Source: a virus
Taxonomy: Duplodnaviria > Heunggongvirae > Uroviricota > Caudoviricetes
Virus record (IMG/VR): IMGVR_UViG_2639762960_000007
Reading direction: 5' to 3' (one strand)
DNA: 38,405 bases
Shown here: positions 1 through 4,623 of the stretch, piece by piece
How the letters are laid out: each line of letters begins with the position of its first letter
Position numbering within the stretch: the stretch's first letter is position 1
Position numbers and translations under genes: made by a program
Notes under the pieces: generated by a model
Seen by the model: the letters and a program-made list of their open reading frames with translations, nothing else
What the model was told of the DNA's origin: nothing
The model's database searches: none

Positions 1-642
1 TTATTTATTGGCTACTGCATCAATACTTAAACTTTCAACGGAGACACCTTTGGTTTCAATTCCAATGGTGGCGATAGCAATTGCGACAATAATTGAAACA
101 GCCCCCAGAAGAATAAAGACTCCCGTTACGCCATAACTACTGAGCAGCACTGCAACGGCATAAGGCGCGGCAATACCACTGATTCGCCCTACCGCATTCG
201 CCAGACCGGAGCCACGGAGTTTGGCCTCTGTTGGCCAGATCTCAGGGACATACACTGCCGAGGCATAGCAAACGTACATATAGACGAAAGTAATCAGGAA
301 GAAACCAATCAGCGTTATGAGCAACATACTGGTTTGCAGTGAATAGATATATCCGAGCACCGCAATCAGGATTAATAGCCCCATCCCCATTGTTTTACGC
401 GGAATTTTATCCATCACCAGCATGGCAATAAAAATACCAAATGGCGCGCCAAACATACTCATGGTATTTAAAACAATCGAGTCTTTTAAATTAATTCCCT
501 GGGTCATGAATATCGTTGGCAACCAGTTAATTAGTGTGTACTGCACAACGTTCATGGCAATCAGCACACAAGAGCCTAATATCACGCGTTTCAGTGATGC
601 GCCGCGCGATAAATGCACTCTATCTTGTGCGATAAATGGCAT
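1..642 (-). CDS. MFS-family transporter, C-terminal half only (5'-truncated; probably a host gene interrupted by the prophage)
   Basis: Stop TAA at 1..3 (tta on plus strand). The 213-aa translation is about six hydrophobic helices, typical of the second half of a 12-TM MFS permease. An in-frame stop lies a few codons upstream of the first Met, so the N-terminal half is absent here. Confidence 0.6.
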   Translation of the reverse strand: MPFIAQDRVHLSRGASLKRVILGSCVLIAMNVVQYTLINWLPTIFMTQGINLKDSIVLNTMSMFGAPFGIFIAMLVMDKIPRKTMGMGLLILIAVLGYIYSLQTSMLLITLIGFFLITFVYMYVCYASAVYVPEIWPTEAKLRGSGLANAVGRISGIAAPYAVAVLLSSYGVTGVFILLGAVSIIVAIAIATIGIETKGVSVESLSIDAVANK

Positions 643-672: not shown

Positions 673-1245
673 TTACATTTCAGGTTGCGTTATGACAGTC
701 CCAACAGGGTGATAGCGGTAGATCGTTGACAGTCCAATATCATAGATAATTGCCAGCCGCTTTCTGTCATACCCTTTCTGGAGCAATCTTGCGATCTGCT
801 CATGCTGCTCCTTCGTCAGTTTCGGGCGACGTCCTCCAACTCTTCCTTGTGCTCGCGCAGCAGCCAGTCCTGCCAGCGTGCGCTCAACTATCAGTTCACG
901 CTCCATTTCTGCCAGTGCACCCATCATATGAAAAAAGAACCTTCCCATCGGAGTGCTGGTATCGATTGAATCCGTCAGACTGCGAAAATTGACACCTTTT
1001 GCGCGTAGCTCTTCTGTGAGAGCAATGAGGTGTTTCATTCTTCTACCCAACCGATCCAGCTTCCAGACCACCAATGTATCCCCTCTTTTAAGGCACTTTA
1101 AAGCGCGTTTCAGGCCTGGTCGTTCCGACTTGGTTCCGCTCATTTTGTCCTCAAAAATCTGTTCACATCCTGCGCACATTAATGCATTGCGTTGCAAATC
1201 TGTGTTTTGGTCATTTGTTGACACACGTATGTAGCCAATCAGCAT
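673..1245 (-). CDS. gin: Serine-recombinase DNA invertase (Gin/Pin/Hin/Cin family)
   Basis: ATG at 1243..1245 gives 190 aa starting MLIGYIRVSTNDQ (catalytic Ser motif) with a C-terminal HTH (RKRLAIIYDIGLSTIYRY). The longer track ORF starts at a non-ATG codon upstream. It lies next to the tail-fibre inverted repeats. Confidence 0.9.
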   Translation of the reverse strand: MLIGYIRVSTNDQNTDLQRNALMCAGCEQIFEDKMSGTKSERPGLKRALKCLKRGDTLVVWKLDRLGRRMKHLIALTEELRAKGVNFRSLTDSIDTSTPMGRFFFHMMGALAEMERELIVERTLAGLAAARAQGRVGGRRPKLTKEQHEQIARLLQKGYDRKRLAIIYDIGLSTIYRYHPVGTVITQPEM

Positions 1246-1311
1246 TAAAAATACTCCCTTTTGAGTGGTTAAAGTACTGAGATAATGTGGGGAGGATTTG
1301 AGAGATAAACG

Positions 1312-1510
1312 TTGGTTTGGGGGAAGGCTCTGCATTGCCTGTTGGTGTACCGGTTCCATGGCCCACCGCCACACCGCCAGCAGGCTGGTTAAAGTGCGAC
1401 GGGCGCGCCTTTACAAAAGAACAATATCCTGTTCTGGCCAGAGTCTACCCGACCCTCCGTCTTCCTGATTTACGCGGTGAGTTTATCCGTGGATGGGACG
1501 ACGGGCGCAA
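1312..1510 (+). repeat. Left arm of a ~199-bp inverted repeat flanking the invertible tail-fibre segment
   Basis: Sequence from ttggtttgggggaaggctctgcattgcc to gggacgacgggcgcaa matches the reverse complement of about 2730..2928; verified by eye over the ends and several internal blocks. Confidence 0.85.
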
Positions 1511-1829
1511 AGTTGATACAGGACGTAAGTTGCTGTCCGCACAAGGGGCAACGCTGTTAAGAACAGCAATGCTGGATTATTATAACCAGGACACTACGGG
1601 AACCTCGGGGATAGTCGGCATGGGATTCAACAATGAAGATTCCATTACAGACCTTCGTGAGGGCAGCTTTAAAATGCCGGACGGGACAACATTCAGCGAT
1701 CCTGTCATGGCAATGTCAGACAATGGTATGCAGGCTACTATTCTGACCTCTATCAGAAGCGGGTATGCGAAGGGTATCACTGTCAGACCCCGTAGCATTG
1801 CACTTAATTACATTGTGAGGGCAGTTTAA
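1317..1829 (+). other. Silent alternative tail-fibre C-terminal cassette (Sv'-like); no ATG, would be fused to the fibre gene after inversion
   Basis: Frame opens at TTG inside the inverted repeat. The first ~63 aa are identical to an internal stretch of the fibre (GEGSALPVGVPVPWPTATPPAGWLKCDGRAF...GWDDGRK), followed by a divergent 106-aa tail ending NYIVRAV (the expressed copy ends NYIVRAA). Confidence 0.7.
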
Positions 1830-2443
1830 TGAGTAACACTGCAGTTCTGGATGAAAACGGTATCGCCACTGTAGCGGGCGATATCACTGTATATCACTAT
1901 GACGAGGAAACCCGGGAATACACCTCATCCTCTGTGGAGTATCTCGCCCTTGGGGTGGGTACTCCGGCACATTCGTGCGCCGATGCACCGCCGGAGGCAA
2001 TTTCGGGTTACGTGGTTTGTCGGACTGCCACGCTGAACGGGTGGGAGCATGTGCCTGATCACCGCGGCGAGACGGTATACAGCACGGAGAACGGTAACCC
2101 CGTTCTGATTACCCAACCGGGTGATTACCCGGCGGACACCACCACAAAACAGCCGGCCACGCCATGGGATACCTGGAACGGTGAGGCGTGGGTAACCGAT
2201 ACTGAACGGCAGCGAGCCGCAGAACTGGAGGTTGCCAGACAGCAACGCCAGCAACGGGTGAAACAGGCGATGGCGTCCGTCGATCTTATCAACCTCAAAC
2301 TGCGGGCAGGTCGCAGTCTGACACCAGAAGAAACGGCAAAACTGAACGCCGTGCTGGATTATATCGACGAGCTGAACGCACTGGATATCAGCACGGCACC
2401 TGAAATCAGCTGGCCGGAAGCGCCACTGGCACTTGCCAGCTGA
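1829..2443 (+). CDS. Tail fibre assembly (chaperone) protein, Tfa / Mu U-like
   Basis: ATG at 1829 overlaps the TAA of the upstream cassette, with GAGG upstream. 204 aa with the typical Tfa C-terminal region (AKLNAVLDYIDELNALDISTAPEISWPEAP). Confidence 0.75.
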   Translation: MSNTAVLDENGIATVAGDITVYHYDEETREYTSSSVEYLALGVGTPAHSCADAPPEAISGYVVCRTATLNGWEHVPDHRGETVYSTENGNPVLITQPGDYPADTTTKQPATPWDTWNGEAWVTDTERQRAAELEVARQQRQQRVKQAMASVDLINLKLRAGRSLTPEETAKLNAVLDYIDELNALDISTAPEISWPEAPLALAS

Positions 2444-2449
2444 ACGGTA

Positions 2450-4042
2450 TCACGCCGCCCTCACGATATAGTTAAACGCGATATTGCGGGGGCGGGTTAT
2501 GTTAAAGAATGCTCCGTTTAATTCGGCTTTTGCGCGACTGTTTGTTCCACCCAGAATTGCGTACCACAAATAATCGCTACGGTAATTCCCCGCAAACACC
2601 TTATCGCCGCCATAGTCAATATTATTTCCGTTACTCATGTACGAGATATCCAGCGAAGAATCGTTATCGTCATGACCGCCGACCAGTGTACCTTTCTGCC
2701 ATGAAAGCAACTTACGCCCCTCGTCAATCTTGCGCCCGTCGTCCCATCCACGGATAAACTCACCGCGTAAATCAGGAAGACGGAGGGTCGGGTAGACTCT
2801 GGCCAGAACAGGATATTGTTCTTTTGTAAAGGCGCGCCCGTCGCACTTTAACCAGCCTGCTGGCGGTGTGGCGGTGGGCCATGGAACCGGTACACCAACA
2901 GGCAATGCAGAGCCTTCCCCCAAACCAAGGTAATTGAGGACATCTTTTATACTGCCCTTAGCGATAATCGCGCGACCAATAGCTGTAAGGGTTGCCAGCG
3001 CTGCGCGGTCTGCTCCGGTAAAATAAGGCAACCGATCTGCTGCAGTGGCAAGTCCTGCGAGAGCAGTGAGCGTGGCATCTGCCGGTTGTTTTCCGTTTGC
3101 CAGATCGTATGCAGCCTTGACCGCTTTCGGTGTGGCGGCCAGTATTTCAGACGTGCTGTTGATGGCACTGCTCAGTTGTACGGTGCCTTTTGCCGTCAGC
3201 GAGGCAGCAGGCACTCCCGTTATCTGACTCCACGGGTGAGTGTGGCTGACGGGCGCCTTGCCGGCTGCAAGGTCGTATGCAGCCTTGACCGCCTTCGGCG
3301 TGGCAGCCTCAGTTTCTGATTGACTGTCCGTGGCGCTGCTCAGTTGTACGGTGCCTTTTGCCGTCAGTGAAGCCGCAGGCACTCCCGTTATCTGACTCCA
3401 CGGGTGAGTGTGGCTGGCAGGCGCCTTGCCGGCTGCCAGGTCGTATGCAGCCTTGACCGCTTTCGGTGTGGCGGCCAGCGTTTCAGACGTGCTGTTGATG
3501 GCACTGCTCAGTTGTACGATCCCTTTACGGGTCGTTGTTGCATCCTGGGCTGTGTATTTTCCCCGGGCCAGATCATACGCGATTTTCACAGCCTTCGGCG
3601 TGGCAGCCTCAGTTTCTGATTGACTGTCCGTGGCGCTGCTCAGTTGTACGGTGCCTTTTGCCGTCAGTGAAGCCGCAGGCACTCCCGTTATCTGACTCCA
3701 CGGGTGAGTGTGGCTGGCAGGCGCCTTGCCGGCTGCCAGGTCGTATGCAGCCTTGACCGCTTTTGGTGTGGCGGCCAGCGTTTCAGAGGTGCTGTTGGTG
3801 GCACTGCTCAGTTGGGTGAACCCCTTAGCTGTCAGTGTCGCGTCCGGGTGGTTACGGGAACGTACGTGTTCAGCCAGTGACTGTGCGGCTTCCTCCGTTT
3901 TCTTCTTCAGCCATTTCGTCCTGTTTGCCAGTTGCCGGGGGGCTCGATTTGATATCCCGTCTGCACCACCCAGAACCGGATCTGATGTCTCCAGTTGATA
4001 GATATTTTCTTCCCACTTTTCTGTTTCATTCAGGTTTCCCAT
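2450..4042 (-). CDS. Tail fibre protein with tandem phage-fibre repeats; C-terminal ~93 aa lie inside the invertible segment
   Basis: ATG at 4040..4042 (the track start at 4048 is TTG); the upstream gene's TGA sits at 4045..4047. Repeated SHTHPWSQITGVPAASLTAKGTVQLSSAT..ATPKAVKAAYDLA units are fibre-repeat-like. Lies directly downstream of the baseplate J/I genes. Confidence 0.85.
   Translation of the reverse strand: MGNLNETEKWEENIYQLETSDPVLGGADGISNRAPRQLANRTKWLKKKTEEAAQSLAEHVRSRNHPDATLTAKGFTQLSSATNSTSETLAATPKAVKAAYDLAAGKAPASHTHPWSQITGVPAASLTAKGTVQLSSATDSQSETEAATPKAVKIAYDLARGKYTAQDATTTRKGIVQLSSAINSTSETLAATPKAVKAAYDLAAGKAPASHTHPWSQITGVPAASLTAKGTVQLSSATDSQSETEAATPKAVKAAYDLAAGKAPVSHTHPWSQITGVPAASLTAKGTVQLSSAINSTSEILAATPKAVKAAYDLANGKQPADATLTALAGLATAADRLPYFTGADRAALATLTAIGRAIIAKGSIKDVLNYLGLGEGSALPVGVPVPWPTATPPAGWLKCDGRAFTKEQYPVLARVYPTLRLPDLRGEFIRGWDDGRKIDEGRKLLSWQKGTLVGGHDDNDSSLDISYMSNGNNIDYGGDKVFAGNYRSDYLWYAILGGTNSRAKAELNGAFFNITRPRNIAFNYIVRAA
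2730..2928 (-). repeat. Right arm of the ~199-bp inverted repeat (inside the tail-fibre coding sequence)
   Basis: Reverse complement matches 1312..1510. Confidence 0.85.
3050..3870 (-). repeat. Tandem near-identical coding repeats inside the tail-fibre gene
   Basis: Blocks such as ccgtcagtgaagccgcaggcactcccgttatctgactccacgggtgagtgtggctggcag recur at about 3361 and 3661 (300 bp apart), with a related copy near 3210. Confidence 0.8.
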
Positions 4043-4044
4043 AA

Positions 4045-4623
4045 TCAACTGCTCCCGTGGTTATAACTGCCATCATGGATGGCGGTATTGTTATAGCGAA
4101 TGGCCACAGACTGATACTCCAGGCTGGCCAGATGGCAGCGGGCCGGTGCAAATGCAGCCAGCGTCTGACGCAGCATCGCGGCCTGATCGTTAGTAATGGG
4201 CTGTTTCAGAATAACGCGATAAACTGCCCAGGCGGCTGCATCTCCATGAACAAACAGTCCGTTATAGCTGCGATTGCCGTCGTAACTGAGACGACCTGTG
4301 CCTTCAATCAGATCCACTTCACCAAAGCCAAAACGGCGGATAACTTCCCGGATTGACCACGGCGTCCCTTTATACCGGTGCAGTTCGATGGCTGCTTTTA
4401 TAAGCATGCGGCGAACATCGTCCGATTCCGCCAGCTCCCAGCCATCGCCAGACAGTGAGAACTGCTCGCCCAGCCATGGCAGCGCGGAACTGTCGACGAT
4501 ATCGACGAGAAAGACCATCAGTACGCTCAGGTCGATGTTATCCAGCCGTCCTGCCAGTCTTCCCAGCGTCCTGAGACTGATATCACCCTCAAGCGGTGGC
4601 GGGAGTTGTAATGGCTCAGTCAT
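4045..4623 (-). CDS. Baseplate protein, P2 gpI-like
   Basis: ATG at 4621..4623 (track start at 4635 is GTG). Placed between the J-like gene and the fibre gene; translationally coupled to both neighbours. Confidence 0.65.
   Translation of the reverse strand: MTEPLQLPPPLEGDISLRTLGRLAGRLDNIDLSVLMVFLVDIVDSSALPWLGEQFSLSGDGWELAESDDVRRMLIKAAIELHRYKGTPWSIREVIRRFGFGEVDLIEGTGRLSYDGNRSYNGLFVHGDAAAWAVYRVILKQPITNDQAAMLRQTLAAFAPARCHLASLEYQSVAIRYNNTAIHDGSYNHGSS

Follow-up and report, generated by a model that had tools for sequence, protein, structure and literature searches.

The DNA analysed here, referred to below as the window, is a 38,405-nt stretch of a Caudoviricetes virus (IMG/VR record IMGVR_UViG_2639762960_000007). 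On sequence grounds, the window carries one end of a transposable prophage that is Mu-like (BcepMu/PhiKM-type): elsewhere it encodes a portal of the Mu type, an rve transposase, and an AAA ATPase, and the nearest sequenced phages are Escherichia phages 503046 and PhiKM, of the genus Bcepmuvirus. The prophage sits in the MFS-transporter gene ydjK of E. coli, with the phage end at approximately nt 594. On its minus strand, the genes for baseplate proteins V, W, J, and I are followed by a gene for a 530-aa tail fibre. The fibre gene follows immediately after Baseplate_J and Tail_P2_I and has Collar and Caudo_TAP neighbours, an arrangement with which the RefSeq annotation of E. coli KE50 agrees. 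The fibre protein is identical to WP_077790698.1, which RefSeq lists in KE50 as a “phage tail protein” (100% nucleotide match), and the prophage of KE50 occupies another chromosomal site, adjoining fliD.

The fibre protein matched the PF03406 (Phage_fiber_2) profile in five stretches, with a score of 306.6 bits (cut-off 22) and an E-value of 1.5e−93. This match, together with the collar domain and the neighbouring baseplate J and I genes, supports the assignment of the repeat region as the shaft of the tail fibre. The N-terminal domain showed only 0–3 differences in 207 nt from those of the 3- to 11-module alleles described below, and is presumed, by analogy, to anchor the fibre on the baseplate; the N-terminus of Mu gp49 docks on the baseplate wedge (PMC11915804). 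In a PDB sequence search, the expressed C-terminus matched the T4 gp37 tip (2xgf, E-value 9.6e−14). The features of the fibre gene and its surroundings are listed in Table 1.

Table 1. Features of the tail-fibre gene and the adjoining invertible segment (positions in the window)
Feature	Position	Strand	Remarks
Tail-fibre gene, 530 aa	2450..4042	minus	ORF list; Pfam PF03406 x5 and PF07484 collar domain
N-terminal domain, aa 1-69	3836..4042	minus	MGNLNETEKWEE...; marks the Mu-like fibre family
U1, aa 70-125, 56 aa	3668..3835	minus	Alpha core and long linker with SHTHPWSQITGVPAAS
U2, aa 126-169, 44 aa	3536..3667	minus	Beta core SSATDSQSETEAAT and short linker RGKYTAQDAT
U3, aa 170-225, 56 aa	3368..3535	minus	Alpha core and long linker
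U4, aa 226-281, 56 aa	3200..3367	minus	Beta core and long linker
U5, aa 282-325, 44 aa	3068..3199	minus	Terminal alpha module, runs into the conserved ADATLTALAGLATAADRLPYFTG segment
Copy A, 173-nt exact direct repeat	3591..3763		End of U1 and start of U2
Copy B, 173-nt exact direct repeat	3291..3463		End of U3 and start of U4
SHTH (HxH motif)	3704..3715 (U1), 3404-3415 (U3), 3236-3247 (U4)	minus	From sequence
Invertible segment with alternative fibre C-termini	1300..2940		Outside the repeat array
Crossover-like sites	2915-2940, 1300-1325	plus, minus	TTCCCCCAAACCAAGG...
Serine DNA invertase, 190 aa from MLIGYIRVST	673..1245	minus	Pfam Resolvase and HTH_7; “recombinase family protein” WP_000904922.1
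Alternative fibre C-terminus cassette	1317-1829	plus	ORF, Pfam Collar; silent in the present orientation
Tail-fibre assembly protein	1829-2443	plus	ORF, Pfam Caudo_TAP; silent in the present orientation

When positions 2450–4048 were compared with themselves, the best 100-nt segment was identical at 100/100 positions at an offset of 300 nt, at 95/100 at offsets of 168 and 468 nt, and at 92/100 at an offset of 336 nt, against at most 42–44/100 at unrelated offsets, which confirms tandem repeats far beyond chance. TRF reported an array of period 168 at 3098–3526 (score 681), and a single family of direct repeats comprised three 282-nt copies (3099–3380, 3267–3548, and 3567–3848) with identities of 81%, 100%, and 91% and spacings of 168 and 300 nt. 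The period is thus composite: modules of 168 nt and 132 nt together form a 300-nt super-unit, equivalent to 100 aa. Exact duplication reaches at most 173 nt, in two copies that lie 300 nt apart. A first-pass annotation of this DNA, made from its letters alone, had placed near-identical tandem repeats at 3050–3870, a range that brackets the true array (3068–3835), and its example pair at 3361 and 3661 falls inside the 173-nt duplicate. The self-comparison that it had proposed returned a defined, composite period with the 300-nt super-unit, and similarity that was not weak. The repeated peptide units that it described were also recovered: SHTHPWSQITGVPAASLTAKGTVQLSSAT occurs exactly at aa 110 and aa 210, and in a third copy at aa 266 the last residue alone is changed.

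The array consists of five in-frame PF03406 modules (aa 70–325), all on the minus strand. All three 56-aa modules (U1, U3, and U4) carry the SHTHPWSQITGVPAAS insert, and the cores come in two flavours, alpha (SSA[TI]NSTSETLAAT) and beta (SSATDSQSETEAAT). Where an alpha core adjoins a beta core, the two share 28 of 35 residues but no more than about 65% of their DNA positions; the flavours differ mostly synonymously. Like cores 300 nt apart are 87–88% identical and their linkers 100% identical; because like parts match best at this distance, the effective repeat is the 300-nt (100-aa) super-unit. U4, the betaL module, is the penultimate module throughout the alleles of the main series, and showed 0 mismatches to the corresponding module in the loci L002 and L004 described below.

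Across 3045–3998, the ORF list also contains six plus-strand ORFs of 60–96 aa, and these could in principle be real small genes, with the repeats representing duplication of those genes. That idea is hardly conceivable. None of the six ORFs had a Pfam match at E ≤1, whereas the minus-strand frame runs for 768 nt with 0 stops and carries the PF03406 match. Furthermore, substitutions between the repeats concentrate at the third codon position of the minus strand (45, 51, and 131 differences at positions 1, 2, and 3, respectively), and codon differences were synonymous in 102 cases and non-synonymous in 58. This position-3 bias and synonymous excess indicate that the minus-strand frame is the one under selection. 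The earlier description of the plus-strand ORFs as artefacts therefore stands, with a refinement as to how they are created: they exist because the antisense frames are poor in stop codons, and the repeats only make them recur.

The long linkers contain an SHTH motif, starting at aa 110, 210, and 266. The insert is conserved as HxHPWxQITGVP; its histidines were invariant across 37 aligned fibres, and HxH was kept in every one of the variants SHTH, NHIH, NHTH, and GHTH. In T4 gp37, the R-pyocin fibre, and P2 gpV, octahedral Fe sites are built from such HxH motifs (PMC6116203). By analogy with these fibres, the HxH motifs of the long modules from three chains may together hold a buried metal ion. 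An AlphaFold2 monomer model of the whole fibre, built from the 37-sequence alignment for a protein expected to be an intertwined trimer, had a mean pLDDT of 32.9 and a pTM of 0.19. PDB matches to the whole protein and to a 134-aa super-repeat were Mu S entries, the T4 gp37 tip, and a short tail fibre (collar domain). The only PDB chains whose PF03406 repeat was matched by sequence were those of the Mu fibre (5yvq, 8ju3, and 9ki1), with one module each. In the cryo-EM study of Mu, the fibre was built for its N-terminus only (PMC11915804), and little is known of the structure or function of PF03406 (PMC3368898).

Related prophages carry 3, 5, 7, 9, or 11 modules, in agreement with the earlier suggestion that the repeats permit changes in fibre length. 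The N-terminus of the window fibre was common to 65 of the 120 best database homologues (66 with the window's own protein), and these 66 cluster representatives among the best 120 homologues had 5–11 modules with 56/44-aa spacing. The dominant architecture was (alphaL-betaS)n-alphaL-betaL-alpha, with n = 0 to 4. The three-module form (n = 0) occurs in PhiKM (L003) and in an ST131-type prophage adjoining aroA (L002), and the window has five modules (n = 1). Seven modules (n = 2) are found in L004–L006 (630 aa), nine (n = 3) in L007 (730 aa), and eleven (n = 4) in L008 (843 aa). Gene neighbourhoods were identical across all loci of this series (L002–L008 and the window). When 300 nt were removed from the window array, anywhere within the exact repeat, the array of L002 and L003 was obtained with 1 mismatch in 468 nt. 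L004–L008 lie at five different chromosomal sites and showed 0 mismatches over 3000 nt upstream, and their arrays differed only by 300 or 600 nt, with 0–1 mismatch otherwise. Identical 3-kb upstream regions with differing arrays imply that copy number has changed faster than point substitution has accumulated there. Super-units differed at 2/300 positions within one lineage compared with 13–15/300 between lineages, a pattern that, at the level of sequence comparison, indicates recent amplification or concerted evolution. The exact repeats 300 nt apart measure 173 nt in the window and reach 446 nt in the longer alleles. Some homologues had a different architecture, for example a run of 56-aa modules, which shows that the 168-nt register has been in use as well.

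We consider it highly probable that the array is a fibre shaft of PF03406 modules in which exchange or slippage between exact repeats adds or removes 300-nt super-units in frame. The changes would arise by homologous unequal exchange or by replication slippage between identical stretches 300 nt apart; from established knowledge of such repeats, unequal exchange would be RecA-dependent and slippage RecA-independent. An exchange between copies A and B, for instance, would yield the 3-module allele. The direct repeats here are well above the minimal homology length for exchange or slippage. The first-pass annotation had named both recombination and slipped-strand changes: recombination or slippage between long direct repeats fits the alleles, but slipped-strand mispairing of the microsatellite type does not. 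Each added super-unit would lengthen the shaft, which is presumably trimeric, and the length of the fibre would in turn affect the reach of its receptor-binding tip to the cell surface. Repeat-built fibres adjust their length by duplicating motifs (PMC6116203).

Such a series could also be produced by assembly, if the differences in copy number were artefacts and the true array length were equal in all prophages. Exact repeats of 173–446 nt exceed short reads, and many fibre entries in the databases are “partial” proteins of 87–117 aa that end within the first repeat; when the N-terminal 72 aa were used as a protein query, only short partial proteins were retrieved. The partial entries may reflect contig breaks in the first repeat, and some public assemblies may mis-size the arrays. 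However, the loci compared here came from complete genomes or megabase-scale contigs, the same alleles recurred in many independent genomes (the 5-module allele in at least 13 complete genomes and the 3-module allele in at least 59, with the 630-aa protein P0034 present in 57 indexed blocks of the collection, from which 24 contigs were read), and all alleles were in frame and differed by exact multiples of 300 nt, with 0–1 mismatch otherwise. We therefore regard an assembly origin as very improbable. Annotation is affected too: intact 3-module genes are given as pseudogene fragments by PGAP. The repeats thus explain the difficulty of assembling and annotating this gene.

The insertion at ydjK was not found among the complete E. 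coli genomes of the collection, where all matches start at about nt 594, and the ST131 lineage with the insertion at the aroA site was used as its substitute in testing for copy-number change in situ. At least 59 genomes with this insertion share one 3-module length; this count refers to the best 60 of 136 complete genomes covering ≥80% of the query, and the sole length exception among those 60 was one IS insertion. The 5-module allele likewise recurred without change, in at least 13 complete genomes. The constant length at the aroA site and the recurrence of the 5-module allele indicate that the alleles are stably inherited.

These counts bear on the proposal that the array is a contingency locus, phase- or length-variable, that switches at high frequency within a clonal population. 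Different copy numbers do occur on identical phage backbones, and exact repeats of 173–446 nt are, from established knowledge, readily deleted or duplicated by both RecA-dependent and RecA-independent routes. Nevertheless, a switch of this kind is quite improbable, given the constant length among the best 60 of the 136 aroA-site genomes and the size of the units. Simple-sequence contingency loci have units of 1–9 nt that shift the reading frame or the promoter spacing, whereas each of the units here (132, 168, and 300 nt) is divisible by three, which makes a frameshift switch impossible. Because all registers are multiples of three, a change in copy number means a change in fibre length, not on/off switching or phase variation. 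The neighbouring invertible segment, by contrast, does vary in orientation in the same lineage.

This segment lies beside the array and is bounded by inverted repeats at 1309–1537 and 2703–2931 (229 nt, 96% complementary). No crossover-like site was found inside the repeat array, and the position of the segment outside the array places the array in the constant part of the gene. The layout known from Mu S and P2 H is present, with a constant N-terminal part, alternative C-termini, inverted repeats, and a serine invertase. An assembly gene co-oriented with each C-terminus is not: there is a single Caudo_TAP gene, which is co-oriented with the silent cassette, and no Caudo_TAP gene was found after the expressed C-terminus among the window ORFs searched with Pfam. 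Both orientations of the segment were found at the same aroA site in ST131 prophages (L002 and L012). As the segment inverts while no change in array length is seen among the best 60 genomes of the same lineage, programmed variation of the fibre comes from the invertase and not from the repeats.

The array also takes part in exchange between different phages. The locus L011 is a P2-like prophage in strain M1/5, in which a P2 H-like N-terminus replaces that of the window fibre. From nt 370 of the gene, at the U1/U2 boundary, to the stop codon, its fibre had 95.3% nucleotide identity to that of the window, and its gpI had no nucleotide similarity to the gpI of the window. This junction inside the array indicates that the array is also a place where phages of different types exchange their distal fibres. 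By tblastn, 376 phage records contained the repeat array, P2-like, P1, lambda, and Stx phages among them, and E. coli genomes carrying the repeat had a median of 5 matching places, so that templates for exchange are abundant. A set of matches ending at window position 3814 (H82–H96) was considered as further mosaic junctions and rejected: these are members of the same prophage family, in which extra repeats split the BLAST alignment.

The repeat family is shared with well-known phages. The PF03406 fibres of P2 (gpH), Mu (S/gp49), P1 (S), and lambda (Stf) have the same core of about 40 residues, KG.VQLSSA..S.SET.AATPKAVK.AYDLA, and their shafts likewise lie between a baseplate-attachment N-terminus and a receptor-binding C-terminus. 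Mu S has a single repeat, whereas the window fibre has five, three of them with a 16-aa insert containing HxH. Unlike these fibres, the family of the window alternates modules of 56 and 44 aa, forming the 300-nt super-unit, and extends from 3 to 11 modules. Mosaic evolution of tail fibres, with recombination at conserved motifs, was reportedly described by Haggard-Ljungquist et al. in 1992 and by Sandmeier in 1994, and recombination at the “His-box” of T-even phages is said to have been described by Tetart et al. in 1998. As in those systems, conserved repeated motifs serve here as patches of homology at which unrelated phages swap fibre segments, and a P2-type N-terminus has been joined within the array; in contrast to them, the patches form a tandem series, are near-identical, and can extend over several hundred nt, and besides swapping they also drive the change in copy number. 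The recurrence of HxH in a fibre presumed to be trimeric has parallels in the R1/R2 pyocin fibres, the T4 gp37 tip, and the P2 gpV apex. However, the helix-plus-turn shaft of the pyocins has no sequence similarity to the PF03406 modules, and the SHTH metal site here is only putative. The invertible segment resembles the G-segment/Din-family systems (Mu Gin, P1 Cin, and e14 Pin) in its invertase, its alternative C-termini, and its inverted repeats of 229 nt. It differs in that inversion is here a separate, neighbouring mechanism, and no portion of the repeat array falls outside the constant part.

Publications already exist on the repeat family, on the part it plays in the mosaic evolution of fibres, and on the principle that fibre length can be adjusted. 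Our literature searches turned up no description of this particular series of alleles with 3, 5, 7, 9, and 11 modules. As a set of lengths on one identical backbone, the series illustrates known principles neatly rather than being a discovery, and it leaves the current view of tail-fibre evolution unchanged. It does provide a natural experiment on fibre length and adsorption, the backbone being otherwise identical, and the series of modules could guide the engineering of fibres or tailocins of adjustable length. The array is, in addition, documented as a junction for a distal fibre that is common to P2-like and Mu-like phages.

A more elaborate reading, which we hold to be rather unlikely, would make the array a quantised “length ruler”, in which the divergence of alpha and beta channels recombination, HxH pins the register, and selection tunes the length. 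Adjacent alpha and beta cores would then be kept about 35% divergent in DNA, mostly synonymously, leading to the 300-nt register and so to the gain or loss of complete 100-aa super-units. An HxH metal site in each super-unit would hold the three chains in register, and the range of 3–11 modules would be tuned to how thick a layer of O-antigen or capsule covers the hosts in which the phage circulates.

In the window's present orientation, the invertible segment associated with the invertase places one C-terminus in the expressed tail-fibre frame, and no assembly-protein gene is co-oriented with that C-terminus. The only Caudo_TAP gene goes with the silent cassette, and this layout is repeated in the 7-module prophages L004 and L005, the 9-module L007, L009, and the P2-like prophage L011. 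In some relatives (the aroA-adjacent ST131-type prophage L002, the 7-module L006, and L007), the invertible region also carries a third C-terminal cassette (151–167 aa, with a collar domain), and the count of alternative receptor-binding tips therefore ranges from two to three among otherwise near-identical phages.

Coordinates of the features
Feature	Locus	Position	Remark
ydjK (MFS transporter), truncated	window	1–594	adjoins prophage end
Invertase	window	673–1245	
Invertible segment	window	1300–2940	229-nt inverted repeats
Caudo_TAP gene	window	1829–2443	
Expressed fibre C-terminus	window	2450–2931	minus strand
Third cassette in invertible region	L002	5295–6859	
3-module fibre gene	L002	4007–5254	
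3-module fibre gene	L012	3273–4565	

The ORF start listed at 642 falls within phage DNA. No prophage was found at this ydjK site in any complete E. coli genome of the collection, consistent with near-random Mu-type transposition; related prophages neighbour fliD, aroA, flgA, ybaP, and other genes.

The 3-module fibre genes of L002 and L012, another aroA-site ST131 prophage, are intact with stop-free translations. In RefSeq/PGAP they nonetheless appear as a shortened CDS together with two or three pseudogene fragments labelled “incomplete”; the repeats apparently mislead the annotation. Among homologues retrieved with the N-terminal 72 aa (P0121–P0140), many “partial” fibre entries of 45–117 aa stop within the first repeat or ahead of it, and one cluster of such proteins has 126 members; these entries suggest that the module array is a routine break point of short-read assemblies. 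Several fibre proteins among the homologues P0033, P0035, P0055, P0066, P0067, P0071, and P0088 carry the clearly wrong NCBI/nr source name “short-chain fatty acid transporter.”
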